Positions 25,035 through 51,167 of a stretch of DNA of 64,000 nucleotides are shown here, piece by piece. Made by a program: the position numbers and the translations under genes. The notes beneath the pieces were generated by a model that was not told where the DNA came from, did no database searches, and saw nothing but the letters and a program-made list of their open reading frames with translations. How positions within the stretch are numbered: position 1 is the first letter of the stretch; each line of letters starts with the position of its first letter. Origin of the DNA: Thermoanaerobaculia bacterium (GTDB taxonomy: Bacteria; Acidobacteriota; Thermoanaerobaculia; UBA5066; Gp7-AA6); assembly GCA_035263845.1 (NCBI GenBank), contig DATFQY010000191.1:37-64036 (forward strand). Reading direction: 5' to 3'.

Positions 25035-25108
25035 GCCGTCAGCCGTCAGCCGAAGCCATGCTTGATACTGGGACTCCGGCTCACCGCTCACGGCTCACGG
25101 CTCACGCG
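25018..25108 (+). repeat. Palindromic heptamer-array element, copy 2
   Basis: ccgtaagccgtaagccgtcagccgtcagccg / 25-nt loop / cggctcaccgctcacggctcacggctcacg. It contains the hldC stop and ends 2 nt before the waaC-like ATG. Confidence 0.6.
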
Positions 25109-25110
25109 TC

Positions 25111-34937: not shown

Positions 34938-36695
34938 CTACGGCTCGAAGAGGAAGAGGCCGTCGCCGGTTGTCCCGACGTAGAGGCGTCCCCCGGGGGC
35001 GGGGGCGGCGGTGGCGAGAGCGAGGCCCGCGCGGGGGCTCGAGACGGCGAGGCGGCGGCCGCCTTCTTCCCAGATGAGCTTGCCGCCGATCTCCTGCAGG
35101 GAGCTGTAGGAGCCGGTGGCCGTCTTCTCTTCCATGAAGATGCCTCCCTTGAGCAACCCGGCGCGGTGGCTCGACCACGCCTGGCCGTTCCAGCGAGAGA
35201 TGCCTTCGCTCGAGCGGACCTCCAGGAGCGGCCCGCCCGCGGAATCCGAGAGCAGCTCCGCCGCGGAGGGCGCGGCGGGTCCGCCGATCGTCGCGAACTC
35301 TTCTCCGGCTCCCCCGATTCGGAAGCTTCCCGCGCTGGTCACCAGCACAGGCTGGAGGAACGGCGACCCGTAGAGAGCGATCGGGCTTCCCGCTGGCGGG
35401 CTCGCCGGCGCCGCCCAGTGCTCCCCCAGGTCGCGCGAGAACCGCAGTCCCGAGGACGAGGCGAGGCCCAGCACCGTCTTGCCGGCCGCGTCGCGGAAGG
35501 CAATGAGCGACGCCGACGGCGGAAGGGTGTCGCGCGAGACCCTGCGGACCCGCAGGCCCCTCGCCTCCCAGACGCCGCTCTCGTCGCCTCCGTACGCCCG
35601 GAAGAAGAAGAGCCGCGAGGGATCGTTGGGATCCGGCACGAGGTCCGCGACCCGCCCCTCGGTCAGCCCGACCGATCCGTTGACGAGCGTCGCTCCCCCG
35701 TCGTCCGAGTAGAAGACGCCTTCGCCTTCGGTCCCGACGAAGAGGCGTCCCGTCGACCGGTCCACCTCGAGCGAGGTGACGACGAGGCTCTCCCTCGAGA
35801 TGCGCGACCACGTCTCTCCCCCGTCGGTCGAGCGGTGCAGCCCTCCGACGGTCGCCGCGTAGACGACCCCCGGCCGCGTCGGGTCGCGCCGCACCGAGTG
35901 CGACCGCCGGTTCGTGAAGCCGTTCTTGAAGCGGATCCACTTGTCGCCGCCGTCCTTCGTCCGGTAGACCCAGCCGCAGGTGGAGACCCAGATGTCGCGG
36001 GGGTCGGATGCCGCGAAGTCCCACGAGTACACCGTCGCGTCGAGCACCATGCCCTCCGCGATCCGCGCCCACGTCTCGCCGCCGTCGCGGGTCCGGAAGG
36101 CCTGCCGCCAGGTCCCCGCATAGAGGACGCGCGGGTCGGCGGGATCGAAGGCCATCGATTCGACCTGCGCGAGCCCCGGGGTCTCCGCTCCCGTCCGCGA
36201 CCACGTCCGGCCGCCGTCGCGAGAGAGACGGACTCCGTCGTCGCCGCCCACGGCGAGCAGGGCCGGGTCGCCCGGCACGACGGCCAGTGCGCGCGTCGCG
36301 ACGGTCTCTTTCCAGGTCGCGAGGATCGTCCAGTCGGCGCCGCGGTTGTCGCTGCGGACGACGAGCCCGCCGGCGTACTGCCCCGCGAGCGACGCCCACA
36401 GCCTGCCGGCGACGCGCGAATCCGCGATCAGCGACGTGACGACGTAGCCCGGAAAGGCCGGGCCCGGGCGAAGCGGCGACCACGAGGCCCCGCCGTCGGT
36501 GGACCCGTAGAAGTTGCCCCGCGAAGTCCCGCAGTAGAGAGAGCCCGGCCGGAACGGATCCATTTCGAAAACGCGGACCTCGGCGCCCCAGATCGGGAGC
36601 CGCCACCACGTGGCCGCGCCGGCGGCGGACGCGACGGCGCCGGCGAGGCACGCCGCCGCGAAGACGCGAAGGAAGCGAGTGGAAAGAAGGCTCAC
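34938..36695 (-). CDS. BNR/Asp-box repeat protein (sialidase-like / Ycf48-like beta-propeller)
   Basis: At least six S-x-D-x-G-x-T-W repeats; signal peptide; GTG start overlaps the xdhC stop. Confidence 0.6.
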   Translation of the reverse strand: MSLLSTRFLRVFAAACLAGAVASAAGAATWWRLPIWGAEVRVFEMDPFRPGSLYCGTSRGNFYGSTDGGASWSPLRPGPAFPGYVVTSLIADSRVAGRLWASLAGQYAGGLVVRSDNRGADWTILATWKETVATRALAVVPGDPALLAVGGDDGVRLSRDGGRTWSRTGAETPGLAQVESMAFDPADPRVLYAGTWRQAFRTRDGGETWARIAEGMVLDATVYSWDFAASDPRDIWVSTCGWVYRTKDGGDKWIRFKNGFTNRRSHSVRRDPTRPGVVYAATVGGLHRSTDGGETWSRISRESLVVTSLEVDRSTGRLFVGTEGEGVFYSDDGGATLVNGSVGLTEGRVADLVPDPNDPSRLFFFRAYGGDESGVWEARGLRVRRVSRDTLPPSASLIAFRDAAGKTVLGLASSSGLRFSRDLGEHWAAPASPPAGSPIALYGSPFLQPVLVTSAGSFRIGGAGEEFATIGGPAAPSAAELLSDSAGGPLLEVRSSEGISRWNGQAWSSHRAGLLKGGIFMEEKTATGSYSSLQEIGGKLIWEEGGRRLAVSSPRAGLALATAAPAPGGRLYVGTTGDGLFLFEP

Positions 36696-37558
36696 GGCTC
36701 GAGGACGCTCTCCCGGACGCGGGAGCGGACAGCGGCGGCGCGGCGGACCGCCGTGACTTCGGCCAGGATCGAGACCGCGATCTCCTCGGGAGTCACGGCG
36801 CCGATCTCCAGGCCGATCGGGGCGCAGACTCGCCGGATCTCGTCTTCCCGGATTCCCTCCTCGCGGAGCCGATCGAAGACGCCGCGAATCTTCCGGTTCG
36901 AGCCGATCAGCCCGACGTACTTCGCCTCGGGGGCGCCGGGCGAGACCCACGGCCGCAGCGCCGCGAGGTCGGTCTCCCAGCAGCGCGTCACGACCGCGAC
37001 GTAGAGGTCTCGCCCCTTCGGCATCGCCTCGGAGGGGAGCGCGTAGTCCCTGCCGGCGCGGATCGTCCGGACGCCGGCGGGGAACCTCTCCGGCTTCGAA
37101 TACTCCTCGCGGTCGTCCGCGACGGCGACGTCGAACCCCAGGGACGGCCCGATCCGCGCGAGGGCGAGGCCGACGTGACCTCCCCCGTAGACGAGCAGCG
37201 CCGGCTTCGCATCGAGACGCTCGACGAGCACCCGGGCCGATCCGCCGCAGATCATGTTGGTGGGCTCGCGCTCGTCTCCGCCGATCTCCCTCTCGAAGAA
37301 GTCGTACCACTTCAGCAGGCGCCTGGGCCCGTCCGCCCGGAAGAGCGCGGCCGAGTCGGCGACGACGAGCGCCTCGAAGGGCCCGCCGCCGATCGTCCCC
37401 GAGAAGGTCCCGTCCTCGAAGACGAGGAAGCGCCGCCCGTCCTTCGACGGCCCGGACCCCTTCGTCTCCACGACGGTCGCCAGGGCGACCCTGCCGCGGT
37501 TCTGAAGTTGTTCGGCCAGGTTACGAAAGAAGGCCTCATCCGACATGGAACGGTTCAT
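36692..37558 (-). CDS. XdhC/CoxI family molybdoenzyme maturation protein
   Basis: XdhC_CoxI N-domain and Rossmann-like C-domain. Confidence 0.7.
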   Translation of the reverse strand: MNRSMSDEAFFRNLAEQLQNRGRVALATVVETKGSGPSKDGRRFLVFEDGTFSGTIGGGPFEALVVADSAALFRADGPRRLLKWYDFFEREIGGDEREPTNMICGGSARVLVERLDAKPALLVYGGGHVGLALARIGPSLGFDVAVADDREEYSKPERFPAGVRTIRAGRDYALPSEAMPKGRDLYVAVVTRCWETDLAALRPWVSPGAPEAKYVGLIGSNRKIRGVFDRLREEGIREDEIRRVCAPIGLEIGAVTPEEIAVSILAEVTAVRRAAAVRSRVRESVLEP

Positions 37559-37595
37559 TTTAGCAAGCCTTCTCTTCGGTTAGGATTCCCCGGCC

Positions 37596-38471
37596 ATGCC
37601 CTCCGTTCGCGTCGCGGTTTTTCCGGCAGCTGGCCTCGGGACCAGGTTCCTCCCGGCCACCAAGGCGCAGCCCAAGGAAATGCTGCCGCTGGTGGATCGG
37701 CCGCTCGTCCAGTACGTCGTGGAAGAGGCGTGCGCGGCGGGGCTCGACCGCATCGTCATCGTGACCGGACGCGGGAAGAACGCGATCGAGGACCACTTCG
37801 ACACCTCCTTCGAGCTGGAGAAGATGCTCGAGGAGCGGGGCAAGAGCGAGCTGCTCGAGCAGGTCCGCGAGATCTCGGGCCTCGCCCGGGTCTCTTACGT
37901 GCGGCAGAAGTCGGCGCTCGGCCTGGGCCACGCCGTGCTCCAGGCGAGGGACCTCGTCGGCCACGAGCCGTTCGCCGTGATGCTCGGCGACGACATCGTG
38001 GACGCCGAGGAGCCGTGCATCGGCCAGATGATCCGGGTCTTCGAGCGCCGCGGGAATCCCGTCATCGCGCTCCAGGAGGTCCCTCGCGAGCAGACGCGCC
38101 AGTACGGGATCGTGGCGGCGCGGCCGGCTGCGGGCGAGAGCCGCGTCGTGGAGATCCAGGACATGGTCGAGAAGCCCAGCCCCGAGAAGGCGCCGTCCAA
38201 CCTCGCCATCATTGGAAGGTACCTGCTTCCGCCCGAACTCTTCGGGATCCTGGAGGCAACCGCGGCCGACGTCGGCGGAGAGATCCAGCTCACGACGGGC
38301 CTGAGAGCGCTCTTGAAGCAGAGGCCGATCGACGGCTACCTCTTCGAGGGGAAACGCTACGACGCCGGCGACAAGCTGGGCTTCCTCGAAGCGACCGTGG
38401 AGTTCGCCCTGAAGCGCCACGACCTCGGAGCGCCCTTCCGGAAATACCTGAAGACCCTGAAGCTCGAGTGA
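37596..38471 (+). CDS. galU: UTP--glucose-1-phosphate uridylyltransferase
   Basis: AAGLGTRFLPATKAQPKEMLPLVDRPLVQYVVEEA. Confidence 0.88.
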   Translation: MPSVRVAVFPAAGLGTRFLPATKAQPKEMLPLVDRPLVQYVVEEACAAGLDRIVIVTGRGKNAIEDHFDTSFELEKMLEERGKSELLEQVREISGLARVSYVRQKSALGLGHAVLQARDLVGHEPFAVMLGDDIVDAEEPCIGQMIRVFERRGNPVIALQEVPREQTRQYGIVAARPAAGESRVVEIQDMVEKPSPEKAPSNLAIIGRYLLPPELFGILEATAADVGGEIQLTTGLRALLKQRPIDGYLFEGKRYDAGDKLGFLEATVEFALKRHDLGAPFRKYLKTLKLE

Positions 38472-39801: not shown

Positions 39802-40998
39802 GTGATCCGTGTTTCCGAGGCCCTGGAGGTCATCGCCGCAAATGCTCCGGCCCTGGAGGCCGAGAGCGTCGCGCTGGGGGACGCCCTCGGGAGGGTCCTC
39901 GCCTCTGACCTTGCCGCGGACGTGGACTGGCCCCCATTCGACACGTCGGCGATGGACGGATACGCCATCCGGCTGGCCGATGTGCCCGCCCCGGGGGCGC
40001 GCCTGCCCGAGCGCGGACGGGCGGTGATGGCCGGCGACGCTCCTCCCGGGCCGCTCCCGGCGGGAGAGACGGTGCGCGTGATGACGGGCGCGCCGATTCC
40101 GCCCGGAACCGAGGCGATCATCCCAGTCGAGCAGGCCCGGGCGAACGGCGGCGCCGTGATTTTCGAGCACCCGCCGGCGGCCGGGGCACACCTGCGCCGG
40201 CGCGGGGAGAGCATCCGGGCAGGCTCGGTCCTGGTCGCCGCCGGAAGACGGCTCACGCCGGGCGACGTGGCGCTCGCGGCCCTGGGCGGCGCCGACCCTG
40301 TCCGCGTGACCAGGCGCCCCCGGATCGCGATCGCCGCGACGGGCAACGAGCTCGTCGCCCCCGGCGGAAGGCCCCGGCCCGGGCAGATCCGGGATTCCAA
40401 CGGCCCGATGCTCGTCGCGCTTTGCCGGGCTCGGGGCTGGGACGCCCGCCGGCTTCCCAACGCCTCGGACGACGAGGCGGGCCTCGCGGCGCTCTTCTCC
40501 ACCGGCACGGAAGAGGCTGACGTGCTGATCACGTCCGGCGGAGTCTCGGCGGGAGACCTCGACCTCGTGCCGGCGGCCGCGGAGCGGCGGGGCTTCGAGA
40601 TCCTCTTCCACGGCGTGTCGGTCCGCCCGGGAAAGCCCGTGGCGTTCGGAAAGCGCGGCCGGACGCTCTGGTTCGGCCTGCCGGGCAATCCCGTCTCGAG
40701 CTCGGTCTGCTTCCACCTCTTCGCGCGGGACGCCCTCGACCGCCTGGAAGGCTGCTCGGCGCCGGGAGCGCCCCGCGCGCGTGTGCCCTTGGCGGGCGAA
40801 CTCCCCCGCAACGGCCCCCGCGAGACGTACCGCGACGCGAGGATCTCCGCGAACGGCGGGGTCACGTCCGTCGAGCCGCTCGCGACCGCGGGTAGCCACG
40901 ACATCCGGGCCCACGCGGCGGCCGACGCCCTGATCCGGATCCCCGCCGGCGCCGAGGCTCAGGTCTCCGGCGCGGTCGTCGAGTGCGTGCTGCTGTGA
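39802..40998 (+). CDS. moeA: Molybdopterin molybdotransferase MoeA
   Basis: 398 aa MoeA domains (SAMDGYA...GGVSAGD). Confidence 0.85.
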   Translation: MIRVSEALEVIAANAPALEAESVALGDALGRVLASDLAADVDWPPFDTSAMDGYAIRLADVPAPGARLPERGRAVMAGDAPPGPLPAGETVRVMTGAPIPPGTEAIIPVEQARANGGAVIFEHPPAAGAHLRRRGESIRAGSVLVAAGRRLTPGDVALAALGGADPVRVTRRPRIAIAATGNELVAPGGRPRPGQIRDSNGPMLVALCRARGWDARRLPNASDDEAGLAALFSTGTEEADVLITSGGVSAGDLDLVPAAAERRGFEILFHGVSVRPGKPVAFGKRGRTLWFGLPGNPVSSSVCFHLFARDALDRLEGCSAPGAPRARVPLAGELPRNGPRETYRDARISANGGVTSVEPLATAGSHDIRAHAAADALIRIPAGAEAQVSGAVVECVLL

Positions 40999-41774
40999 GC
41001 CCGGCGCGGCGTCCGAGGCCGCAGACCGAGCACCGAACGATTCGTACCTCGGACGGCGTGCGGATCGCGTACACCTGGTGGCGCCGGCCGTCGAAAGAAC
41101 TCCTCCTCCTCGCGCCCGGCTTCTGGAGGGTACGCCTCGCGAAGGAGAACCTCTTCCTCGCGGAACACTTCCTGCGCCAGGGCTACGACGTCGCGGCGAT
41201 CGACTTCCGCGGGCACGGCGACAGCGGGGGCGCCTACACATTCGGCACCGAGGAGCGGCAGGACTTCCTTTCCGTCGTCGAAGATCTCGTCGGAGAGGGA
41301 AAGCCGTACTCGCGCTTCGCCGTGCTCGGTTTCTCCATGGGCGGCTCGATCGCCGCCGACACCCTGGCGCGGACTCCGGATCTGCCGTGCCGGGGGCTTG
41401 CGATGGTCTGCTCGCCCGAGCACGTCTCCTCGCTTCGCCCCCGCCCCTGGAAGGCGAACGCGGCCAGACAGATCCGGATCCGGCACGTCATTCACGTTCC
41501 GCGGATCTCCGGGAGGCGGCTGCTCTCCCCCAAGCCGAAGATCTCCCGCGCGCTCGCCCGGCTGTCCATTCCCAAGCTCATCGTGACCGCCGAAGGGGAC
41601 TGGCTCGTGGATCCCTCCCAGGGCCGGGCGCTCGCGAAAGGTGCGGCCCCGCCGGTCGAGCACGTGCACCTGGCGCTCGGCGGGTCCCTCCACGCGGACG
41701 CCCTGGTGCGGTGGGCGCCGCTGGCCCTCCTGCGGCCGCTGGACCGCTGGTTCGCGAAGCACGCGCCACCTTAA
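40983..41774 (+). CDS. Alpha/beta hydrolase
   Basis: HG..SGG box with GFSMGG nucleophile elbow. Confidence 0.65.
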   Translation: MRAAVSPARRPRPQTEHRTIRTSDGVRIAYTWWRRPSKELLLLAPGFWRVRLAKENLFLAEHFLRQGYDVAAIDFRGHGDSGGAYTFGTEERQDFLSVVEDLVGEGKPYSRFAVLGFSMGGSIAADTLARTPDLPCRGLAMVCSPEHVSSLRPRPWKANAARQIRIRHVIHVPRISGRRLLSPKPKISRALARLSIPKLIVTAEGDWLVDPSQGRALAKGAAPPVEHVHLALGGSLHADALVRWAPLALLRPLDRWFAKHAPP

Positions 41775-41829
41775 GAGAATCCTCAGCCGGCACCCGACTC
41801 GCACGGATCGTGCAAATAGAATCGGAGTG

Positions 41830-43080
41830 ATGTCTCGACGGGTCGTCGTGACCGGCATCGGCTGTCTCTCCCCCAACGGCAACAGCCGCGAGGGCTACGC
41901 GCGGGCTCTGCGCGAGGGGACGAGCGGAATCGGGCGGATCTCGCTCTTCGATCCGGAGGGCCTGCCGGCGACGATCGCCGGGGAGCTGAAGGGGTTCGAC
42001 CCGTCCGCGCACCTGCCCGCCAAGGACGCGCGGCACGTGTCCCGCGCCGTGCCGATGGCCGTGGCCGCCTCGGCGGAAGCGCTGGCCGACGCGGGCATCG
42101 AGCCGGAGTCGCTGAGCCTCGAGGAGAAGCGGCAGCTCGGCGTCATCCTCGGAACGGGCGGAGGCCCCATCGAGTTCTCCGAGCGGATGTACCACCTCTA
42201 CTACACCAACCAGGTCAAGAAGGCATCCGTGTACGCGATCCCCTCCGGAACGATCGGCACGCTCTCCTCGGAGATCTCGATGATCTTCGGCTTGCGCGGC
42301 CTCTCGCACGTGATCTCGACCGGCTGCGCGTCCTCGACCGACGCGCTGGGATACGCCTTCCGCTCGATCAAGTTCGGGACTGGCGACATCTTCCTCTGCG
42401 GCGGCGTGGACGCGACGGTCGTCCGCGGGATCATGGAGGGATTCGTGATGATGCGGATCGTCTCGACCTCCTGGGAAGACGACCCGCCGCGCGCCTCGCG
42501 CCCCTTCTCCGCCGACCGCGACGGGTTCGTGCTGGGAGAGGGCGCGTGGATGTTCGTGCTCGAGGAGCGCGAGCGCGCCCGGGCCCGCGGCGCCCGCATC
42601 TACGGCGAGATCCGCGGTTACGGCGCGACCTGCGACGCCCACCACCGTGTCCGGCTGGACGAGACGGGCGAGGAGCCCGCCCGGGCCATGGCGCTGGCGC
42701 TCGAGGAGTCCGGGCTCGCGGCCGACGCGGTGGACTACCTCGCCTACCACGGGACCTCGACGGAGTTGAACGACCGCGTCGAGACTCGCGCCGTCCGCCT
42801 GGCCTTCGGGCGCCGCGCCTCGCGTCTGCCGGGCTCGTCGATCAAGTCCATGATCGGCCACCCTCAGGGAGCCTGCGGAGCGGCGGGCCTCGCCGCGACC
42901 CTCCTGGGAATGCGGGACTCCTTCCTGCCGCCGACCGTCAACCTGGATCGCCCGGACCCGGAGTGCGACCTCGACTACGTCGCCAACGAGGCGCGACGCG
43001 ACTCCTTCGAGCACGCCGTCTGCAACACGATCGGGTTCGGATCCAAGAACAGCGCGCTGGTGGTATCCCAGGCGCTCTAA
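41830..43080 (+). CDS. Beta-ketoacyl-ACP synthase (FabF/KAS-II family)
   Basis: Active-site Cys (STGCASS) and His/His (CDAHH, HGTST); C-terminal GHPQGACG. Good RBS (GGAGTG). Confidence 0.85.
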   Translation: MSRRVVVTGIGCLSPNGNSREGYARALREGTSGIGRISLFDPEGLPATIAGELKGFDPSAHLPAKDARHVSRAVPMAVAASAEALADAGIEPESLSLEEKRQLGVILGTGGGPIEFSERMYHLYYTNQVKKASVYAIPSGTIGTLSSEISMIFGLRGLSHVISTGCASSTDALGYAFRSIKFGTGDIFLCGGVDATVVRGIMEGFVMMRIVSTSWEDDPPRASRPFSADRDGFVLGEGAWMFVLEERERARARGARIYGEIRGYGATCDAHHRVRLDETGEEPARAMALALEESGLAADAVDYLAYHGTSTELNDRVETRAVRLAFGRRASRLPGSSIKSMIGHPQGACGAAGLAATLLGMRDSFLPPTVNLDRPDPECDLDYVANEARRDSFEHAVCNTIGFGSKNSALVVSQAL

Positions 43081-43104
43081 GGTCTAAGCTCGGAGGCCGG
43101 GACG

Positions 43105-43809
43105 ATGTCGTTTCTGGTTCCGGCCCGCCGTCCTTCGAAGGAGCTCCTCGACGATCCCGACTTCCCCGCCGAGGATTTGCCGCTCTACTTCGACGACCTC
43201 GAGCTGGTGGACCGGCTCTGGGGCAACTCGCGCCTGCTGGCGGGCCACCTCGAAAAAAACCTGAAGAGCCAGGATGGCGTTCCCCTCACCGTCCTCGACG
43301 TCGGCGCGGGATCTGGTCACGTCTCCTCGGAGATCGCGGCCCGTCTCCGGCGCAGGGGCCGGTCGGCCCGGGTCGTCGCGCTCGACATCCAGTGGAGCCA
43401 CCTCGCCGCGGGGCACGCGCACGACGGCGCGGGAACGGCCCGCGCCGCTGCCGACGCCTTCGAGCTCCCTTTCCGGGACGACTCGGCGGACTGGATCGTC
43501 TCCGCCCTGTTCTTCCACCACTTCTCCCCGGAGGAGAACGTCCGGCTTCTGCGCGAGCTCTCGCGGGTGGCGAGGCTCGGCTTCGCTCTCGTGGACATCC
43601 GCAGGCACCGTTTCCTGCTCTCGTTCTTCCGGATCGCGGGCCGGCTGCGCCTGGGCTGCCCCGCGTCGCTGGAGGACGGCATCGCCTCCGTGCGCCAGGC
43701 TTACACGGTCGAGGAAGCGAGGGAGATCGCCGAGCGCGCTGTCCCCGGCGCCCGCGTGCGCCGCGTGTTCCCCTACCGCCTCCTGGTCTTCAAGCCTCCT
43801 CCCCATTGA
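43105..43809 (+). CDS. Class I SAM-dependent methyltransferase
   Basis: LDVGAGSGH motif I. Confidence 0.7.
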   Translation: MSFLVPARRPSKELLDDPDFPAEDLPLYFDDLELVDRLWGNSRLLAGHLEKNLKSQDGVPLTVLDVGAGSGHVSSEIAARLRRRGRSARVVALDIQWSHLAAGHAHDGAGTARAAADAFELPFRDDSADWIVSALFFHHFSPEENVRLLRELSRVARLGFALVDIRRHRFLLSFFRIAGRLRLGCPASLEDGIASVRQAYTVEEAREIAERAVPGARVRRVFPYRLLVFKPPPH

Positions 43810-44939
43810 CGACGCGCTTCGACGCGGCGGTCATCGGCGCCGGGCCGGCGGGGAGCGCGGCCGCCGCGATCCTGGCGGAGGCCGGCCGCCGGGTCCTGCT
43901 GCTGGAGAAAGACCGGTTTCCGCGGCCGAAGGTCTGCGGGGAATTCCTATCGGGAGACGCAATGGCCTCCCTCGACCGGCTCGGCGTCCGCAAGCGGGTC
44001 GATCGGGCGAGGCCAGAGCGGATCTCCCGCGGCCGGATCCACCCTCCGCGGGGACGCGGGATCTCCTTCGACCTGCCGTTTCCCGCTCTCGGGATCTCGC
44101 GGTTCCTCCTCGACGATCTGCTCGCGCGGCGGGCGGCGGAGGCGGGCGCGAACGTCCGCTTCGGAGCGCGGGTCTCCTTCGTCCGGCGGGAAGAGCCCGC
44201 CGGGTTTCGAATTCGCGTCGTCGAAGGGGGCGAAGAGTCGGACCTGGAAGCGGGCGCCGTCATCGGCGCGTGGGGGCGGTGGGATTCGCTCGACCGGCGG
44301 CTGGAGCGCGGGTTCCTGGCGAAGCGCCGTAGGTTCTTCGCGTGGAGCCGCGACTACACGGGCGACACCGGGCCACTCGCCGGAGAGGTCCGCCTCTACC
44401 TCTTCGATGGAGGCTACTGCGGCTTGACCCGCGTCGAAGGCGGCGCCGCCAACCTCGCCGGGGTCGTTTCGGAGAAAACGTTCCGCCGGCGCGGCTCCCG
44501 GTGGGACGCGATCTGCGCGCACGCGCGCGCCACGAACCAGTTCCTCGATGCCGACCTGTCGCGTCTGGCGCCGGGACCGATCGGCTTTCTCGGAACCGGG
44601 CCCGTCTACTTCACCGCGAAGCCGCCCGTCGAGGACGGGATGCTGATGGCGGGGGACGCCGCCGGCTTCCTCGATCCGTTCTCCGGCGAGGGCCAGGCCT
44701 CCGCGCTCCTCTCGGGGATCCTCGCCGGGGAGACCGCCGAGCTGTTTCTGTCAGGAAGGTTCCCGCGCGAGAAGCTCGCGGAAACCTACGAGAAGGCGTG
44801 GCGCAGCCGCTTCTCGCCGCGGTTCCAGTGGAGCGCCCGGCTTCGGACGCTGATGCTCAACCCCGCCGCCGGCGCTCTCGCCGCGTGGCTCCTGGGCGAC
44901 CGCCTGGCCCGCTTCGGCTTCGCCGCCACGCGGCGGTGA
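43806..44939 (+). CDS. FAD-dependent oxidoreductase, geranylgeranyl-reductase family
   Basis: AVIGAGPAGSAAA dinucleotide motif and GDAAGFLDPFSGEG. Confidence 0.7.
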   Translation: MTTRFDAAVIGAGPAGSAAAAILAEAGRRVLLLEKDRFPRPKVCGEFLSGDAMASLDRLGVRKRVDRARPERISRGRIHPPRGRGISFDLPFPALGISRFLLDDLLARRAAEAGANVRFGARVSFVRREEPAGFRIRVVEGGEESDLEAGAVIGAWGRWDSLDRRLERGFLAKRRRFFAWSRDYTGDTGPLAGEVRLYLFDGGYCGLTRVEGGAANLAGVVSEKTFRRRGSRWDAICAHARATNQFLDADLSRLAPGPIGFLGTGPVYFTAKPPVEDGMLMAGDAAGFLDPFSGEGQASALLSGILAGETAELFLSGRFPREKLAETYEKAWRSRFSPRFQWSARLRTLMLNPAAGALAAWLLGDRLARFGFAATRR

Positions 44940-44942
44940 CCG

Positions 44943-45653
44943 CTACAGCCCCCTAGCTCCCTCCGGAGTGAAGAGCGCGTCGTCGAGCTTGCCGGGCCGG
45001 TAGTCGAGGTACTCGAGCTTCGTCACCGACTTCGGGTCCTTCGACAGCAGGTCGCGGATCTCCATCTCCGAGACGATCGTCTTCCCGGCCTTCGTCGAGA
45101 ACTTCGTGAAGGTGATCTCCTTGGCTTCCTTCCCCGACGGGAGGTGGAAGAGGACCTTCACGGGGAGTTTCTCCGCCTCGTTCCACCAGAGAAGGACACG
45201 AGGGTAGGGAGCGGTGGGCGACCTGGCCGTCAGCTCCAGAACGCGGCACGGCTTTCCGTTCACGGTGTCGGTCTCGGGCTTGAGCGTCGCGGTGTAGTCC
45301 ACGGAGAAGCGCAGGCTGGCGACGTCGGCCATCGAGGCGCCGCCGAGAAGCCGCTGGTTGGGCGTGACGGGAATCGGCCGGCTCGCGCCCGGGATCAGAA
45401 TCCACATCCTCGGCCCGTCGGTCAGAACTTTGCGCCCCTTGTTCCCCCCGCTTCGGAAAACGATGACTCCGCGATCGCGCCCCTTCGTGTACACCTCGAA
45501 GTCCGTGGATTGGCCCGGCTTCCCATCGGTCACCTGGGTAGCCCTGGCCGAGATGACCGCCTCGTCGAACGCGTTGCGCGTGGCATCCGCGATCTGCAGC
45601 CACGACTGCACGTCCGGCGCCGCCGCCAGTAAAGCGATCAAGAGAGCTCTCAT
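44943..45653 (-). CDS. LolA-like outer-membrane lipoprotein carrier/sorting protein
   Basis: Signal peptide; about 237-aa LolA_like fold; immediately downstream of the ABC pair. Confidence 0.55.
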   Translation of the reverse strand: MRALLIALLAAAPDVQSWLQIADATRNAFDEAVISARATQVTDGKPGQSTDFEVYTKGRDRGVIVFRSGGNKGRKVLTDGPRMWILIPGASRPIPVTPNQRLLGGASMADVASLRFSVDYTATLKPETDTVNGKPCRVLELTARSPTAPYPRVLLWWNEAEKLPVKVLFHLPSGKEAKEITFTKFSTKAGKTIVSEMEIRDLLSKDPKSVTKLEYLDYRPGKLDDALFTPEGARGL

Positions 45654-45707
45654 GGAATCTTCAACGTCGGGGCGGCGATCAGTCTTCCTCAAAGGGGCGG
45701 CGAGGCC

Positions 45708-45818
45708 GGGTCCAATGGACCTTGGACGAACCTTTGACCTTGGACTTGGGACTTTCGACACACTGGACCTTGGACTTTGGACGTGCGACCGACCTTGGAC
45801 CTTGGACCTTGGACCGTC
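45708..45818 (-). repeat. Degenerate (GGTCCAA)n / (CTTGGAC)n heptamer array, about 14 units
   Basis: Read directly. Lies between the tandem TGATGA stops of the permease and the lolA-like start. Confidence 0.55.
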
Positions 45819-45819
45819 A

Positions 45820-47043
45820 TCAGATATGGGCGAGCGCTTCGACTATGGAAACCCGTGACGCCCGTCGTGCCGGGAAGTACGACGCCACCACCATGGTCGC
45901 GATCATCGCCAACAGACCGGCGGCGTACGCCAGCGGGTAGAAACGAACGTTGATCGGCATCCCGTGGGTCGCGCCGGGAGGAGGCGGGAGGATGATCCCC
46001 GAGGCGTTCAGGACGGCGCGGATCGCGAGCGCGAGAACCATTCCGGCAACGCAGCCGACGGCCGCCAGCGCGATCCCCTCGACGAGGAACATCCGCAGGA
46101 TCCCGGCCGGCCGGGTGCCGAGCGCGCGCAGCGTCCCGATCTCGCGCGTCCTCTCGGAGACCGCCATCGTCATGACGATCGCCGCCGACAGGATGACGAT
46201 GACGACGAGCACCGCCCCAACGAATCCGAAGATCCCGATGTAGAGCAGCTTGACCTGGCCGTAGAAGACCGCGAGCTCTTTCCAGTGGCGGATGACGACG
46301 TCGTAGCCGGCCGCCTTCAGCTCGCTTCCGATCCTCGCGGCGGCGCGGTTCTCGTCGGCGTCGCGTCTCAAGAAGACCACGAGCTTGGTCACCGTCTCCG
46401 GGCTCTGCAGCAGCCGCGCGGCGAGGCCGATCCCGCACGCGAGGTACCGGTCGTTCAACTCCTTGATGCGGACGTCGGCAAGGCCGGCGACCACGGCGTC
46501 CACCGCGTTCAACGACCCGTCGGGAGTCGTCGCCATGAGGGTGAGCCCGTCGCCCGGCTTGACCTGGAGCGCTGACGCGAGACCGGTGCCCAGGACGACG
46601 CCGTCGCCGCCGTCTCCCGACAGGTACTTGCCCGACACGACGAGGTCCCGCGCGCCGGTGGCCTTGCCCTCCGGGTCCGGGTCCACTCCTACTCCCAGGT
46701 AGGGAACGGACTTGGCTCCGGCCACTGCGAGGCCGACGAACTCGATGCGCGGAAGGACGGCCGAGACGGCGGGGTCCTTCGCGACGGCGGAGCGCGCGCG
46801 CGAGGACTCCTTCAACCCGAACTCCAGCGTCCTCTCCTCGGCCCGGTCCACGGACCTGCGGTCCACCGCCTGGAGCTGCCCGACCGTCTGGATGGTCCCC
46901 TCGCGAAGCCCCTCGAAGGACTGCGCGATGAACCCTCCCGCCAGCGCGAAGGCGGCGAACCCGAAGGCCACGACCGTCCCCATCAGGATGGTCCGCCGGC
47001 GCTGCCGGACCAGGTTGCGCCACGCGAGCGACAGAGAGCTCAT
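45820..47043 (-). CDS. ABC transporter permease, FtsX/LolC/E family
   Basis: 407 aa: N-terminal TM, large periplasmic loop, three C-terminal TM segments. Confidence 0.75.
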   Translation of the reverse strand: MSSLSLAWRNLVRQRRRTILMGTVVAFGFAAFALAGGFIAQSFEGLREGTIQTVGQLQAVDRRSVDRAEERTLEFGLKESSRARSAVAKDPAVSAVLPRIEFVGLAVAGAKSVPYLGVGVDPDPEGKATGARDLVVSGKYLSGDGGDGVVLGTGLASALQVKPGDGLTLMATTPDGSLNAVDAVVAGLADVRIKELNDRYLACGIGLAARLLQSPETVTKLVVFLRRDADENRAAARIGSELKAAGYDVVIRHWKELAVFYGQVKLLYIGIFGFVGAVLVVIVILSAAIVMTMAVSERTREIGTLRALGTRPAGILRMFLVEGIALAAVGCVAGMVLALAIRAVLNASGIILPPPPGATHGMPINVRFYPLAYAAGLLAMIATMVVASYFPARRASRVSIVEALAHI

Positions 47044-47765
47044 CTCGCCGCCCCGTCGCTCTCGACTAAGCCGTCGTGGAGGCGAACCACGCGGCGCGCC
47101 CGCGCGACCACGCGGGGGTCGTGCGTCGCGAAGAGAAACGCCACGGAGCTCTCCTCGTTGATCTTCCGCATCAGGTCGAGGATCTCCTCGGCGGTGCGCG
47201 AGTCCAGGTTCGCCGTCGGCTCGTCGGCGAAGACGATCGCGGGCCGATTGGCGAGCGCGCGGGCGATCGCGACGCGCTGGCGCTGCCCTCCCGAGAGGAG
47301 ATCCGGCCTCACCGCCAGCTTCTCGCCGAGGCCGACGGCCGTGAGAAGCTCCCGCGCCCTCTGGCGCCGCTCCTCGGGGGCCCTGCCCGCGATGACCATC
47401 GGGTAGGCGACGTTCTCCTCGGAGGAGAGGACCGGGATGAGGTTGAAGGTCTGGAAGACGAACCCGAAACGGTCGCGCCGCAGGTCCGACCGCGCGTTCT
47501 CGGAGAGCGACTCCCCTTCCCGCCCCTCGATAAGGATCGTCCCCTCGTCCGGCCGGTCGAGCAGCCCGAGAAGGTTCAGCAGGGTCGTCTTGCCCGATCC
47601 GCTCGGCCCCTGGAGGGCGACGAACTCGCCGGGCGCGATCGTGAGCGTCACGCCGCGAAGGGCGGCGACCTGGGAGGCGCCGAGCCGGTAGTTGCGCGAG
47701 AGGCCCTTCGCCTCGACGAGCGGCTCCCGGTCCCGGCGGATCCCCTGCGACTGCGGCTCGCCCAA
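47040..47765 (-). CDS. ABC transporter ATP-binding protein (LolD/MacB-like)
   Basis: Walker A GPSGSGKTT, signature LSGGQRQR, Walker B. Confidence 0.85.
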   Translation of the reverse strand: MGEPQSQGIRRDREPLVEAKGLSRNYRLGASQVAALRGVTLTIAPGEFVALQGPSGSGKTTLLNLLGLLDRPDEGTILIEGREGESLSENARSDLRRDRFGFVFQTFNLIPVLSSEENVAYPMVIAGRAPEERRQRARELLTAVGLGEKLAVRPDLLSGGQRQRVAIARALANRPAIVFADEPTANLDSRTAEEILDLMRKINEESSVAFLFATHDPRVVARARRVVRLHDGLVESDGAAR

Positions 47766-47792: not shown

Positions 47793-49103
47793 TTACGCCG
47801 GGCCCACCCCCACCACCTCGAGCTCCACCCGCCGGTTCTTCGCGCGGCCTTCGTCGGTGCTGTTGCTGGCGACTGGCTTGCTCAACCCCTCGCCGCGGAC
47901 CTGGAGCTTCTTGGGATCCACCCCGAGGCTGACGAGGTAATCGCGAACCGACTGCGCCCGACGCAGGGAGAGCTTCTTGTTGTAGGCCGCCGTACCCTTG
48001 TTGTCGGTGTGGCCCGTGATGATCACCTTGTCCGCGCGGGAGAGCTTCTCCCTCGCTTCCTCGCGGTAGGACTTGATGGCCTCCTTCCCTTCCGGTTTCA
48101 GAACGGCCTTGTCGAAATCGAAGAGCACCGCGTCGAAGAGGATGGTTTTCTCCCTCGCAGGCGCGGGCGCCGGCGCCCTCGGAGCAGGAGCGGGGGCGGG
48201 GGCCGGAGGAGGCGGCGCGGAGGCGACCTGGGGCGGCGGGAACTCATAGCTGACGGTGTACTGGCGCGTGGTCCTGGTGCCCATCTTCTGGAAGGCCGCC
48301 ACCATGTCGCCGCCCTTCCCGGCCTTGCGGGCCATGCCCTTGGTTCCTTCGGCAAACTTCGCGAAGAAGGGATCCATGTTCGGACCCGGCATCGAATCGA
48401 CCAGGAACACGCAGAGGTTGTCGATGCCCTGTGCGGCCTGGGCGACGACGTCGCCCTTGAAGGCGCTGTTCAGGTCCTCGCCATCCGAGAAGACCCAGAT
48501 GCACCGCGACTCGCTGGCCGGCGCAGCCTTGAGGAGAACCAGGCCGGCGTACATCTCCTCGTAGAGGTAGGTGTTGTCGGTGATGTTCTTCTTCAGGTAG
48601 GCCTTGTTCGCGTAATCCTGAAGCTCGGCGGGCTTGTTCGACTTGAAGGTGTCGACATGGACGTTGCGATCGCCCATCTTCACGACCTTCCCGTCGCGGA
48701 GGATGACGATCTGCGCGTCGTCGGCGGGGCGGATCGTCTGGATCACGGCGCTCGCCTCGGCAAGCTGCGGCTGGATCCTCCGGCGCTCCTCGATCGAATA
48801 AGAGTTGTCCAGCACGAGGACAACGTGCCGCGGAACGTCCACGGTCTTGTCCACCGACTCGACCGAGACGATCCTTCCCGTCTCGCCTCCTCGCGACACC
48901 GTGAAATCCCGGGCGGTCAACGAGGGGACGGGCTCTTTCCTGGAATCCAGGACGGTCACGAGGGCCTTGCCCTCCCCCATGGTCCGGTCAATCGTCACCG
49001 TCGCGTCGGACCGGGTCGTCCCGATCCGGACGTCCTGCGCAACCAGGACTGCTCCCCAAGCCATCAGGGCGACCAGGAAAACGGATGTGCGCTTGATCAA
49101 CAT
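47793..49103 (-). CDS. vWA-domain / OmpA-domain outer-membrane-associated protein
   Basis: Signal peptide, vWA domain, Pro/Ala linker, C-terminal OmpA_C (TDNKGTAAYNKKLSLRRAQSV). Confidence 0.7.
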   Translation of the reverse strand: MLIKRTSVFLVALMAWGAVLVAQDVRIGTTRSDATVTIDRTMGEGKALVTVLDSRKEPVPSLTARDFTVSRGGETGRIVSVESVDKTVDVPRHVVLVLDNSYSIEERRRIQPQLAEASAVIQTIRPADDAQIVILRDGKVVKMGDRNVHVDTFKSNKPAELQDYANKAYLKKNITDNTYLYEEMYAGLVLLKAAPASESRCIWVFSDGEDLNSAFKGDVVAQAAQGIDNLCVFLVDSMPGPNMDPFFAKFAEGTKGMARKAGKGGDMVAAFQKMGTRTTRQYTVSYEFPPPQVASAPPPPAPAPAPAPRAPAPAPAREKTILFDAVLFDFDKAVLKPEGKEAIKSYREEAREKLSRADKVIITGHTDNKGTAAYNKKLSLRRAQSVRDYLVSLGVDPKKLQVRGEGLSKPVASNSTDEGRAKNRRVELEVVGVGPA

Positions 49104-49294
49104 GACCTTCCTTCCCCCTCTCCGGGCTTCCGTTCTGGCCCGCCCGCAAACACTTCCGAGGATGCGGGCGGTCGACCCCGATGCCCGTTCTCGACGGCCG
49201 TACGGATGCTGCAATCCTGCTGAAACTCTCCCACTTCCGGCCATTCCCTTTGATTCAACCGCACCAACACCAAAGTTCATTGATAATCCGCGCC

Positions 49295-49392
49295 GGAAGC
49301 GCATGGGGCCTGGTGGCTCTCGCGGACTTCAAATCCGTCGGCGTCGCGGTTATGCCGGGACGGGTGGGTTCGATTCCCACACGCTTCCGCCA
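49295..49392 (+). tRNA. selC: tRNA-Sec (anticodon UCA)
   Basis: Folded by hand: 7-bp acceptor stem GGAAGCG/CGCTTCC, 6-bp D-stem with 4-nt loop, anticodon loop CTTCAAA, long variable arm, T-arm GTGGG-TTCGATT-CCCAC, G discriminator and CCA. Confidence 0.75.
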
Positions 49393-49426: not shown

Positions 49427-50836
49427 TCAGTGGAGGTGGGCGCTGGGGTTGCCCTGCGGAAGGGCGGCGAAGGCGGGGTTGTCGGGCTTCCCGCGGTTTA
49501 GGATGATCGCGTAGAGGAAGGGGGCGAAGCTCGTTCCCTTGCGGCCGTTGATCGCGACGATCGGGGTGCCGTCGGAGTCGAAGCGGCTGGCGTTCGCGAT
49601 GTCCTGCTCCAGGGTCTGGCGGACCTCCCGGGAATCCAGGCACGAGTCGATCTGGGCGCGCGACAGGAACCGCGAGGCGATATCGATCGCCTGCGAGCGT
49701 GTCAGGCCCTCCTGCTTCTCGAAGAGCGCCGTCGCGAGGTCCGGCTCCTTTCCCGACGGCTCGGCGCAGATGCGAAGCTTCGCCGCAACGCAGCGCACGT
49801 CGTCACGATTGCCGCCCGGCTTCAGGAGCGGGTTGCACCTTCCGTCCAGCGGGAACTGCCTCGAGTCCACGCTGTAGCTGCCGGGCGGCACCTCCTGGCG
49901 CAAGGAACGCAGGGTCTCGTTCAGGCTCGCGCAGTGCTCGCAAAGGATGTCGGTGAAATCCGTGATTCGGACCGGCGACATCTCGGGGCCGACGAGCGAG
50001 CGCGGCGGTGGAAGCTCCTGCGGGGTCGAGGCCCGGTAGATTGCGAGGGAATCCGCCAGCGTCTGCTTCAGGGACGGCTCCAGAGAGGCGATCATGTCGG
50101 CGATCGCCTTGTTGCGCTGCGGGCTGCCGGAAGAGACCTCCGGGGGCTCCGCGGCGACCTCGGAGCTCGGGGAGGACTTCGCCGCGGCGGCCACGGCCCG
50201 GCGCCCCGGCTCGCCGGTGGAGCGGGGCGTGTTGACGCCCGGGTAGAGGAGGACGAGGAACGCGGCGACGGCGCATCCTCCCGCGAGCGCGGCGGCGCGC
50301 GGCCAGTCAGGCAGGCCGAACGGGCGCCAGCGGCGCAGCGCGAACACGGCGTAGGCGGCGACGAGCGCGTCCATCGCGAGGCAGCCCAGGCACGCCGCGC
50401 CGGCGGCGACGCTCGCGCCCAGCATCACGACGATCCCGGCAGCCCCGGCGATCGCCGTGACACGAGCGGCGCCGAAGACCCTTCCGATGGATCTGCCGCG
50501 GGCCGCGCGCGAGAGCCCAGCGAGGGCGAGGGAGAACGCCCCGGCGCTCCAGACGAGGCCCCACGCCGCGACCGGCAGGCCGGTCAGGCCCTGGACTTCC
50601 GAGGCAAACTTCCCGTTCCATACCGCCGAGCAGTCGAGGCTGCCCTCGGTCGCGCAGAAAGTGTTTCCCCCGGAACGCAGGATCACAAGCTCCATCCAGA
50701 GAAAGAGCGACCAGAGCCCGGAAACCGCCGAGAGAGCGATGAGCGTTGCCCATGGCGGAGCGTCGGTCGAGCGTGGCGGACGCGGCGACGGATCAGCCGG
50801 TCGGGTTTCCTTTTTCTTTTTCTCCAACATCGTCAT
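49427..50836 (-). CDS. VKOR-domain / DsbA-like thioredoxin fusion protein
   Basis: N-terminal VKOR membrane domain with CxxC; C-terminal DsbA-like domain with a CEHC motif. Start limited by the downstream tRNA gene. Confidence 0.65.
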   Translation of the reverse strand: MTMLEKKKKETRPADPSPRPPRSTDAPPWATLIALSAVSGLWSLFLWMELVILRSGGNTFCATEGSLDCSAVWNGKFASEVQGLTGLPVAAWGLVWSAGAFSLALAGLSRAARGRSIGRVFGAARVTAIAGAAGIVVMLGASVAAGAACLGCLAMDALVAAYAVFALRRWRPFGLPDWPRAAALAGGCAVAAFLVLLYPGVNTPRSTGEPGRRAVAAAAKSSPSSEVAAEPPEVSSGSPQRNKAIADMIASLEPSLKQTLADSLAIYRASTPQELPPPRSLVGPEMSPVRITDFTDILCEHCASLNETLRSLRQEVPPGSYSVDSRQFPLDGRCNPLLKPGGNRDDVRCVAAKLRICAEPSGKEPDLATALFEKQEGLTRSQAIDIASRFLSRAQIDSCLDSREVRQTLEQDIANASRFDSDGTPIVAINGRKGTSFAPFLYAIILNRGKPDNPAFAALPQGNPSAHLH

Positions 50837-50904
50837 TGTGTCATCAGGCAGGGAACTCTCTTGATCCCTCTGGCCTGAGACCGTGCTATCCTCCGCGGTC
50901 CCGT

Positions 50905-50981
50905 GGGGCTGTAGCTCAGTTTGGGAGAGCGCCTGAATGGCATTCAGGAGGTCGACGGTTCGATCCCGTTCAGGGCTTTCG
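50905..50981 (+). tRNA. tRNA-Ala-like copy with a disrupted acceptor stem (probable pseudo-tRNA)
   Basis: Its first 66 nt are identical to tRNA-Ala(GGC), but the 3' acceptor strand CAGGGCT cannot pair with GGGGCTG and no CCA is present. Confidence 0.4.
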
Positions 50982-51090
50982 GCGCGGGCGCTCGCTCCGC
51001 GAGCGGCGCCGAGAGAGTTAGCTACCAGGGGCACTTAGCCGGCGAGCGCCTGCTGACTCAGGAGAGCCGTGCTATCCTGCGCGGTCCCGT

Positions 51091-51167
51091 GGGGCTGTAG
51101 CTCAGTTTGGGAGAGCGCCTGAATGGCATTCAGGAGGTCGACGGTTCGATCCCGTTCAGCTCCACCA
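51091..51167 (+). tRNA. tRNA-Ala (anticodon GGC)
   Basis: Canonical cloverleaf, G3:U70 identity pair, CCA encoded. Confidence 0.9.

Follow-up and report, generated by a model that had tools for sequence, protein, structure and literature searches.

A FabF-like ketosynthase, a methyltransferase and a flavoprotein as a possible modified-lipid operon in Thermoanaerobaculia

The 64,000-nucleotide stretch of contig DATFQY010000191.1 analysed here in full (hereafter the window; assembly GCA_035263845.1, G+C ~68%), from a Thermoanaerobaculia bacterium of the Acidobacteriota, contains two side-by-side units. The first (41830-44939, plus strand) encodes a beta-ketoacyl-[acyl carrier protein (ACP)] synthase (KAS), a class I S-adenosylmethionine (SAM) methyltransferase (MT) and a flavin adenine dinucleotide (FAD)-dependent oxidoreductase, and the second (44943-47765, minus strand) encodes a LolA-like periplasmic protein, an FtsX-type ATP-binding cassette (ABC) permease and an ABC ATPase. 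The KAS appears to represent a family separate from the bona fide FabF enzymes, and the KAS-MT-FAD trio is the only unit of this neighbourhood that is conserved across deep divergence. Our reading, which we hold tentatively and with somewhat less than even confidence, is that the trio is a self-contained operon for a modified lipid, with a FabF-like synthase as the basis of a variant phenolic or polyketide-lipid tailoring chemistry.

Gene models on which codon-position G+C, open reading frame (ORF) lists, Pfam and NCBIfam agreed recovered all seven genes listed in an earlier note on this DNA, an alpha/beta hydrolase among them (Table 1). Two four-nucleotide overlaps were also found, the first of which it had described: the FAD gene starts at a TTG inside the TTGA that overlaps the MT stop, and the permease and ATPase genes share an ATGA. 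The FAD and LolA-like genes are convergent, with 3 nt between their stop codons. Its claim that ACP, ketoreductase (KR) and dehydratase (DH) genes are lacking was upheld for the span 40983-47765, in which Pfam gave no KR or DH domain, and tblastn of the whole window with E. coli AcpP and with the ACP of a related cluster gave no AcpP-like match. Neither a type III polyketide synthase (PKS) nor a second KAS was found in searches across the 64 kb, and the nearest short-chain dehydrogenase/reductase lies ~8 kb past the ABC ATPase gene and is flanked by genes for a permease and for glutamine synthetase. Rfam gave no riboswitch near the operon, and promoter and terminator scans of it returned background levels only.

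The KAS protein is identical to an NCBI entry named 'beta-ketoacyl-[ACP] synthase family protein' from a Thermoanaerobaculia (Acidobacteriota) metagenome-assembled genome (MAG) and also occurs on an ENA metagenome contig. When it was aligned to Bacillus subtilis FabF (4ls5), the segments TGCAS, DAHH, YHGTST, KSMIGH and GFGS fell into register, confirming the intact Cys-His-His triad that had been reported and indicating that the whole Cys-His-His-Lys-Phe set is preserved, so that the decarboxylating-condensing active site is predicted to be complete. The enzyme shares fold, length and this catalytic set with FabF (KAS II) and presumably uses acyl-ACP and malonyl-ACP likewise, but on the fabF equivalog model TIGR03150 it reaches 424.8 bits, ~70 bits under the cut-off of 493.75 and ~250 bits under real FabF. 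In calibration of that model, B. subtilis FabF scored 675.5 bits, five other members of the KAS family from distant lineages scored 420-438, and the dedicated ketosynthase (KS) of a type III PKS cluster scored 465. Identity to the FabF proteins of B. subtilis and E. coli (the latter sequence entered by hand) is 37-43%, against 54% between these two FabFs, which come from different phyla. Several FabF stretches are changed (GSGIGG to GTGGGP, PFFVP to VYAIP and GEGAG to GEGAW), and the family carries motifs of its own, PIEFSERM and GEG(A/S)WMFV. The KAS does lie above the cut-off of the broad PRK07314 subfamily. No acpP adjoins this KAS in the window or in ~160 related loci, the only ACPs detected with the E. 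coli AcpP probe being beside a different cluster KS (KAS2) in the type B loci described below. Because the TIGR03150 score is below the cut-off, identity is only ~40% and no acpP adjoins it, we take the KAS not to be a bona fide FabF, and the same three observations counter the null hypothesis of the earlier note, a housekeeping FabF. The conservation of the KAS (76-89%) was considered as a housekeeping sign and ruled out: in genome pairs with MT identity of 70-80% the mean identity is 87% for the KAS and 91% for the type B type III PKS and its dedicated KS, so that dedicated PKS and KS proteins are equally or more conserved at equal MT divergence.

The MT has a conserved N-terminal extension, and its best NCBIfam match is PRK06202 ('hypothetical protein', 105 bits). 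Its AlphaFold model (pLDDT 85.5) matches yeast Coq5 first (template modelling score 0.69-0.71) and then the C-methyltransferases CouO and NovO, suggesting a Coq5/UbiE-like fold. A biotin-type logic, in which MT, hydrolase and KAS would stand for BioC/BioH functions, was ruled out, as BioC models gave 33 bits and the hydrolase goes with MoeA. The FAD protein reaches 127.8 bits on the geranylgeranyl reductase (GGR) family model (TIGR02032, GG-red-SF; cut-off 158.8), and its best matches among solved structures are flavin halogenases and archaeal GGR, which makes it a predicted member of the GGR/halogenase/UbiH superfamily. Motifs invariant in its subfamily, in near and far loci alike, are FPRxK(V/L)CGEF, GAWGRW, GGY.G and GDA(A/S)G..DP. 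The GGR-type Cys of PxxKxCG is kept and invariant. YxWxFP is the substrate motif of GGR structures, and it is absent from this flavoprotein, in which the region reads GGYCGLTRVEG. The halogenase motif WxWxIP is absent from the sequence too, and on that ground a flavin-dependent halogenase was ruled out despite the top structure matches. That MT and FAD form a functional pair is supported by a natural MT-FAD fusion protein (P0244, 630 aa). Other fusions in this MT family join the MT to a polyketide cyclase/SRPBCC domain (P0327, 408 aa) or to a glycerophosphodiester phosphodiesterase (P0304, 507 aa), and the three fusion partners together suggest lipid or polyketide substrates.

A scan of one genome per GTDB species with an alignment of MT homologues, followed by tblastn maps, gave 80 loci, all from Thermoanaerobaculia/Acidobacteriota MAGs; the restriction to these taxa follows in part from the family-specific search patterns. 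Directly upstream of the MT stands the KAS in 61 of the 73 informative loci, a type III PKS in eight, the hydrolase in two and another gene in two. The FAD gene follows the MT directly in 70 of 71 genomes, and in 45 of the 62 informative ones a convergent LolA-like gene comes immediately after FAD. Four arrangements can be distinguished. Type A is that of the window (MoeA, hydrolase, KAS, MT and FAD, facing LolA-like, FtsX and ABC genes). In type B, a hypothetical gene, a type III PKS, MT and FAD come after a dedicated KS and an ACP that are encoded on the opposite strand; MoeA-hydrolase and LolA-like-FtsX-ABC lie immediately alongside in three of its loci and not in six. Type C keeps hydrolase, MT, FAD, LolA-like and the following genes without a KAS, and in type D the trio of KAS, MT and FAD is kept while hydrolase and Lol-like genes are missing. 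A neighbour-joining tree of MT and FAD (built without support values) places types B, C and D each in one clade within type A, with one type D locus (L081) as an outlier, and because they nest in this way the arrangement of the window looks ancestral for the class. Its recurrence in most of the 80 species-level genomes argues that it is not a chance juxtaposition. Two MT loci in a single MAG were considered as a trio duplication, which they probably are not, since both loci have the same flanks and mixing of strains in the bin is likelier.

In type B the type III PKS lies 37 nt upstream of the orthologous MT-FAD pair, and one source annotates this PKS group as 'alkylresorcinol/alkylpyrone synthase'; in one subclade of Thermoanaerobaculia the pair demonstrably sits behind an alkylresorcinol-type PKS. 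Operons of this kind are known as hidABC, a conserved set of methyltransferase, FAD oxidoreductase and type III PKS in cyanobacteria and Planctomycetota that makes alkylresorcinols such as the hierridins (PMC10896814; PMC8086630). The cyanobacterial gene order is hidC>hidA>hidB (PMC8086630), which is the order in which orthologues of the window pair follow the type III PKS in the sister subclade. When the methyltransferase and oxidoreductase of Gimesia maris were co-expressed with the PKS, the products gained an extra, probably carbon-bound, methyl group, and the role of the oxidoreductase stayed open in that study (PMC10896814). The G. maris mtr and fdo sequences were machine-read from the supplement PDF of the same paper and are frameshifted. 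On the frameshifted mtr, our MT aligned from residue 1 through the SAM motif (BLAST 30% identity over 86 aa), and a hidden Markov model (HMM) of the MT family scored 31 bits on the intact N-terminal part (E 8e-6 at Z=1e6), with other methyltransferases at 12 bits or less. The FAD HMM matched fdo collinearly in three frames (38 + 32 + 24 bits), and the two flavoproteins share FPRxKVCG, GYxGLxRVEG and GDAAG. These alignments, the Coq5/CouO/NovO-like MT model and the MT-FAD fusion lead us to consider the pair a probable remote homologue of the HidA/HidB tailoring pair. As in the hidABC/srsABC operons of cyanobacteria, Planctomycetota and Streptomyces, an MT and then an FAD oxidoreductase are tightly coupled behind a condensing enzyme; unlike in those operons, the condensing enzyme of the window is a FabF-like KAS and not a type III PKS, and its FAD subfamily has GAWGRW instead of GADG. 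The MT and FAD proteins are only ~30-36% identical to their G. maris counterparts.

This homology raises the alternative of a split alkylresorcinol (hierridin/Srs-like) pathway, in which the KAS would make only a special long-chain acyl-ACP starter, like the KS and ACP of the type III PKS clusters, a type III PKS encoded elsewhere would build the resorcinol ring, and MT and FAD would tailor that ring. Hid-type operons are known to act in this manner, the MT-FAD orthologues of type B stand behind a type III PKS, and three acidobacterial loci (L004, 6401-9963; L085; L086) pair a FabF-like KS and an ACP, divergently, with a TPR or YceI-like gene and a type III PKS. The tailoring genes of this KS-ACP-PKS cluster vary, from none (L085) through an ICMT-type methyltransferase with a different FAD enzyme (L086), both in other lineages, to the pair studied here. 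We nevertheless consider the split pathway unlikely, because no type III PKS occurs in the window or, within up to 10 kb, in ~60 type A loci; because none of the best 120 type III PKS relatives (to 64% identity) lies on a large type A contig, including contigs of 2.3-4.3 Mb; and because identity between the window KAS and the cluster KS is just 40%, with no ACP ever standing beside the former.

The earlier note had likened the genes to aryl-polyene, xanthomonadin and flexirubin-type clusters, and the window does share with aryl-polyene (ape) clusters a type II fatty-acid-synthesis-like KS, a SAM methyltransferase, an FAD enzyme and a LolA-like protein (PMC8253772). However, ape clusters contain three KS genes (one of them a chain length factor, CLF), two ACPs, a KR, two DHs, an acyl-ACP synthetase, a thioesterase, acyltransferases and a resistance-nodulation-division (RND) exporter, with Lol-like proteins proposed to place the lipid in the outer membrane (PMC8253772). 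The span 40983-47765 has a single KS without CLF, ACP, KR, DH, acyl-ACP synthetase, thioesterase or acyltransferase, its exporter is of the FtsX ABC type and not RND/MMPL, and Pfam gave no DUF3261/LolB-like protein. As the flavoprotein also lacks WxWxIP and the pair is nearer to HidA/HidB, the likeness did not survive, and a pigment cluster of any of these three types is effectively refuted by the gene content.

JGI metagenomes were then scanned with an alignment of the KAS family, with PIEFSERM and GEG(S/A)WMFV as probe peptides, which confirmed at least 537 KAS-family relatives in soil metagenomes. Where the KAS is at least 70% identical, an MT lies downstream in all 16 informative loci; at 55-67% identity an MT (31-42% identical) lies downstream in 18 of 44, and the FAD gene (34-45% identical) follows the MT wherever the contig is long enough. 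In these distant trios, which have a KAS of 60-64% identity and lie on the higher-GC contigs (0.62-0.71), the MT usually starts 21-32 nt past the KAS. In seven of them (L112, L113, L114, L115, L118, L119 and L120) the gap is 520-660 nt, and in L113 (7304-7906) and L115 it holds an ORF of ~175-200 aa, that of L113 giving no Pfam or NCBIfam match. Neither the hydrolase nor the LolA-like/FtsX/ABC genes occur in any of the 18 distant trios, whose neighbours are variable and non-biosynthetic. A stand-alone Lon N-terminal (LON_substr_bdg) protein recurs beside some (L141, 8993-9670; L136, 9273-9947; L113, 9888-10820), in L141 on the same strand immediately after FAD. Another 12 of the 44 distant loci, lower in GC and Terriglobia-like (GC 0.55-0.64, with a single one above 0.60), have a fused, MsbA-like ABC exporter downstream of the KAS, a second and different pairing of the KAS family with a lipid-type exporter. 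It stands on the same strand ~150 nt past the KAS (L110, L111, L122, L127, L130, L131, L140, L154, L165 and others) and scores 423-430 bits on the MsbA model (cut-off 602). The remaining distant KAS loci have unrelated neighbours.

Parts of the window backbone recur in distant loci: in L126 and L157 a sigma-54 regulator, BNR, PatA_N and MoeA genes precede KAS-MT-FAD, and in the Terriglobia-like L153 a sigma-54 regulator lies upstream of a solo KAS, with an M28 peptidase downstream that is 66% identical to the M28 peptidase at the end of the window. Because distant loci share this backbone, the KAS is likely to be old and vertically inherited. It could be a core acidobacterial lipid enzyme with a role of its own that MT-FAD, the hydrolase and the Lol-like set adjoin by descent, without a shared function. 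The solo KAS in the old Terriglobia-like block, with the regulator and peptidase placed as in the window, fits that explanation, as do types B, C and D, in which MT-FAD and the Lol-like set are separable from the KAS. We find it improbable, however, given that KAS-MT-FAD adjacency, with gaps of 21-32 nt or overlaps, has outlasted divergence of the partners to 31-45% identity while all other neighbours changed, and that the MT accompanies all 16 independent close KAS loci.

Starting from the gene identities, the separation of the KAS from FabF, the linkage and the homology of the tailoring pair, we infer substrates, product and export route for the trio as follows. The KS would take a fatty acyl-ACP from the general fatty acid synthesis pool, without a dedicated ACP, and extend it with malonyl-ACP to give a beta-oxygenated, polyketide-type head group. 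The MT would C-methylate the activated carbon, a reaction known from Coq5 and apparently shared by the G. maris homologue, and the flavoprotein would hydroxylate or reduce the methylated product, the end product being a methylated phenolic, quinone-like or beta-oxygenated envelope lipid. The modified outer-membrane lipid proposed in the earlier note stands in part: the trio is a conserved unit and plausibly makes a lipid, and export by the adjoining transporter is only possible, that link being confined to Thermoanaerobaculia. A bolder extension, which we rate as improbable, is that KSs with PIEFSERM/GEGSWMFV are FabF-derived stand-alone polyketide-lipid synthases that work on the housekeeping ACP and make 1,3-dioxygenated heads (resorcinol-, pyrone- or quinone-type) like those of type III PKSs, with export in Thermoanaerobaculia through the LolA-like/type VII ABC set. 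This would explain how KAS and type III PKS could be exchanged for each other before the same Coq5-like/UbiH-like pair.

Several points weigh against a polyketide-lipid operon. We know of no precedent for a lone FabF-type KS building a polyketide head group. The pair is only remotely homologous to HidA/HidB (~30-36%), as judged from PDF-read, frameshifted gene sequences. The flavoprotein has GAWGRW in place of the usual GADG while the GGR-like Cys stays, which makes a hydroxylase and a reductase indistinguishable. Within one class, descent alone can preserve synteny, and the KAS family also occurs solo, in an old synteny block, in lower-GC Terriglobia-like lineages that lack MT-FAD, so that the KAS has a role independent of the tailoring pair.

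The retained Cys and the MT fold would also suit a methyl-branch cassette acting on type II fatty acid synthesis. The KS would make a beta-ketoacyl-ACP of set length, the MT would methylate its C2, and the flavoprotein would reduce the enoyl group after FabG/FabZ, a methyl-substituted enoyl being poorly handled by FabI; the product would be a mid-chain methyl-branched fatty acid. The trio is self-contained and needs no dedicated ACP or releasing enzyme, the MT comes closest to C-methyltransferases whose target carbon lies between two oxygens (the G. maris homologue also appears to C-methylate), and GGRs reduce methyl-branched trisubstituted double bonds. Against this, in a nested subclade the MT-FAD pair works for a type III PKS, which would require a large change of substrate, and the MT is unrelated, beyond fold, to PKS C-methyltransferase domains or cyclopropane-fatty-acid-synthase-type enzymes. 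We judge the cassette, both in its steps and in its branched product, to be rather unlikely and retain the polyketide-lipid operon as the preferred reading.

The second unit resembles LolCDE-LolA: its FtsX permease has a large periplasmic domain, the ATPase gene overlaps that of the permease, and its periplasmic protein belongs to the LolA superfamily. Hydropathy (segments 17-43, 262-299, 313-354 and 368-392; Pfam FtsX at residues 274-399) gives the permease one transmembrane helix, a periplasmic loop of ~215 aa and then helices 2-4, and it is 70-84% identical across the class. Permease and ATPase together have the features of a type VII (MacB/FtsX-type) ABC transporter. An architecture of the LolCDE type pulls lipidated cargo from the inner membrane and hands it over to a carrier. 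Unlike LolCDE-LolA, the set has only one permease gene, which scores 90.7 bits on the lolCE model TIGR02212 (cut-off 362.45); the ATPase scores 229.8 bits on LolD (cut-off 307.75), 221.6 on MacB and 211 on DevA. The carrier, which has a short signal-like N-terminus, matches PF17131 (92 bits) and not LolA (PF03548), with the uncharacterized LolA-superfamily protein NE2245 (3buu, E 6e-21) as its closest solved structure. Unlike MacAB or DevBCA, the set has no membrane-fusion protein. With model scores so far under the cut-offs and a carrier of the PF17131 type, the set is probably not the canonical Lol machinery, and the housekeeping Lol pathway that the earlier note offered as an alternative loses ground accordingly. 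The combined explanation, plain fatty-acid synthesis beside an ordinary Lol pathway, can point to the full FabF-type active site of the KAS, its place above the PRK07314 cut-off and LolD as the best named match of the ATPase. It is very unlikely in our view, with KAS, permease and ATPase all well under their equivalog cut-offs, a KAS only ~40% identical to FabFs, the PF17131 carrier, and neither acpP nor other fab genes in the window or in the ~160 loci.

By analogy, the second unit may carry the lipid of the trio, or a lipoprotein, towards the outer membrane. Functional coupling of the Lol-like set to the trio is possible, though we lean against it. The close convergent placement in 45 of 62 genomes speaks for coupling, as do the Lol-like set within 5 kb of PKS-MT-FAD in three type B loci and the fact that other lineages have another lipid-type ABC exporter behind the KAS. 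DevBCA exports heterocyst glycolipids and so offers a precedent for lipid cargo. Lol-like proteins are also found in aryl-polyene clusters (PMC8253772). On the other side, trio and Lol-like set are separate, convergent transcription units, their linkage is lost in type D and in most of type B and is absent from about a quarter of the class loci, and the set is found in 0 of the 18 distant trios. A literature search for clusters of LolA-like, ABC and ketosynthase genes found nothing.

The hydrolase had been described as tightly linked to the KAS, but it goes with MoeA and the backbone. The database gene call starts at GTG 40995, and because this start overlaps the MoeA stop by four nucleotides (GTGA), the hydrolase appears translationally coupled to MoeA and not to the KAS. 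Only in Thermoanaerobaculia does it lie beside the trio, and where the trio has another location it remains with MoeA and the Lol-like set; given this, the overlap and its absence from distant trios, it probably lies outside the core. The MoeA-like protein is below both the MoeA and the Glp/gephyrin cut-offs and is probably a synteny marker of the backbone, outside the system. In L081, L105, L126 and L157, where the KAS is 62-76% identical, the hydrolase is missing and MoeA is the immediate neighbour of the KAS; the adjacency of MoeA and KAS reflects either very old synteny or an unexplained link. XdhC and MobA-like nucleotidyltransferase genes stand just upstream of the MoeA-like gene, and molybdenum cofactor genes also occur in the window.

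Table 1. Genes of the two units, their flanks and other features placed in the window.
Feature	Position	Strand	Length	Assignment or remark
Type IV pilus/type II secretion block	8567-34381			
GT9 heptosyltransferase	25066-26100			
XdhC and MobA-like nucleotidyltransferase	36692-38471			
MoeA-like molybdotransferase	39802-40998	+		MoeA_N, MoCF_biosynth, MoeA_C (Pfam)
Alpha/beta hydrolase	40995(40983)-41774	+	259-263 aa	Hydrolase_4/Abhydrolase_1; nucleophile elbow GFSMGG
KAS	41830-43080	+	416 aa	ketoacyl-synt N and C domains (Pfam)
Class I SAM methyltransferase (MT)	43105-43809	+	234 aa	Methyltransf_25/11 (Pfam)
FAD-dependent oxidoreductase	43806-44939	+	377 aa	FAD_binding_3; GGR superfamily model (GG-red-SF)
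LolA-like periplasmic protein	44943-45653	-	236 aa	PF17131 (LolA_like/TP_0789-like)
FtsX-type (type VII, MacB/LolC-like) ABC permease	45820-47043	-	407 aa	FtsX (Pfam)
ABC ATPase, partner of the permease	47040-47765	-	241 aa	ABC_tran (Pfam)
OmpA-C protein	47793-49103			weak VWA domain
Selenocysteine tRNA	49295-49388	+		Rfam, 70.6 bits
VKOR-DsbA/thioredoxin fusion	49427-50695	-		
tRNA	50905-50978	+		
tRNA	51091-51164	+		

Beyond the two units, the window holds further envelope and surface genes. A VKOR-DsbA/thioredoxin fusion lies beside an OmpA-C protein with a weak VWA domain. Both belong to the envelope and are encoded downstream of the ABC set, and in the related genomes L002 and L003 neither has that place. 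A selenocysteine tRNA just upstream of the OmpA/VWA gene makes selenoprotein synthesis probable in this organism, and two ordinary tRNAs come after it. The long ORFs at 47793-49304 and 49427-51034 overrun tRNA features, and the database calls are shorter (~47793-49103 and 49427-50695). The type IV pilus/type II secretion block contains a secretin, three ATPases (two PilB-like and one PilT-like) and two platform proteins of the PilC type, as well as a PilS-like histidine kinase with six transmembrane helices and a sigma-54 response regulator (a PilS/PilR-like pair). The GT9 heptosyltransferase points to an outer membrane that bears lipopolysaccharide. Between 17800 and 22900, codon-position G+C gave no clear gene model, with rival long ORFs on both strands.

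Acidobacteriota rank with the most abundant bacteria of soil, and their unusual membrane lipids serve as environmental proxies, with much of the lipid enzymology unknown. Our data describe a compact, directly testable three-gene unit, widespread in soils (at least 537 KAS relatives in one metagenome scan), that combines a condensing enzyme which appears to be neither the housekeeping FabF nor a known PKS type with a tailoring pair common to alkylresorcinol pathways. The LolA-like/type VII ABC set beside it would be an uncharacterized Lol-like system and a candidate lipid exporter. If the trio installs methyl branches, it would bear on the origin of branched bacterial lipids. If the KAS stands in for a type III PKS, the trio would be a new route to phenolic or quinone-like lipids, and if it is a stand-alone synthase with dedicated export, it would represent a new biosynthetic logic for the abundant, unexplored membrane lipids of soil Acidobacteriota.

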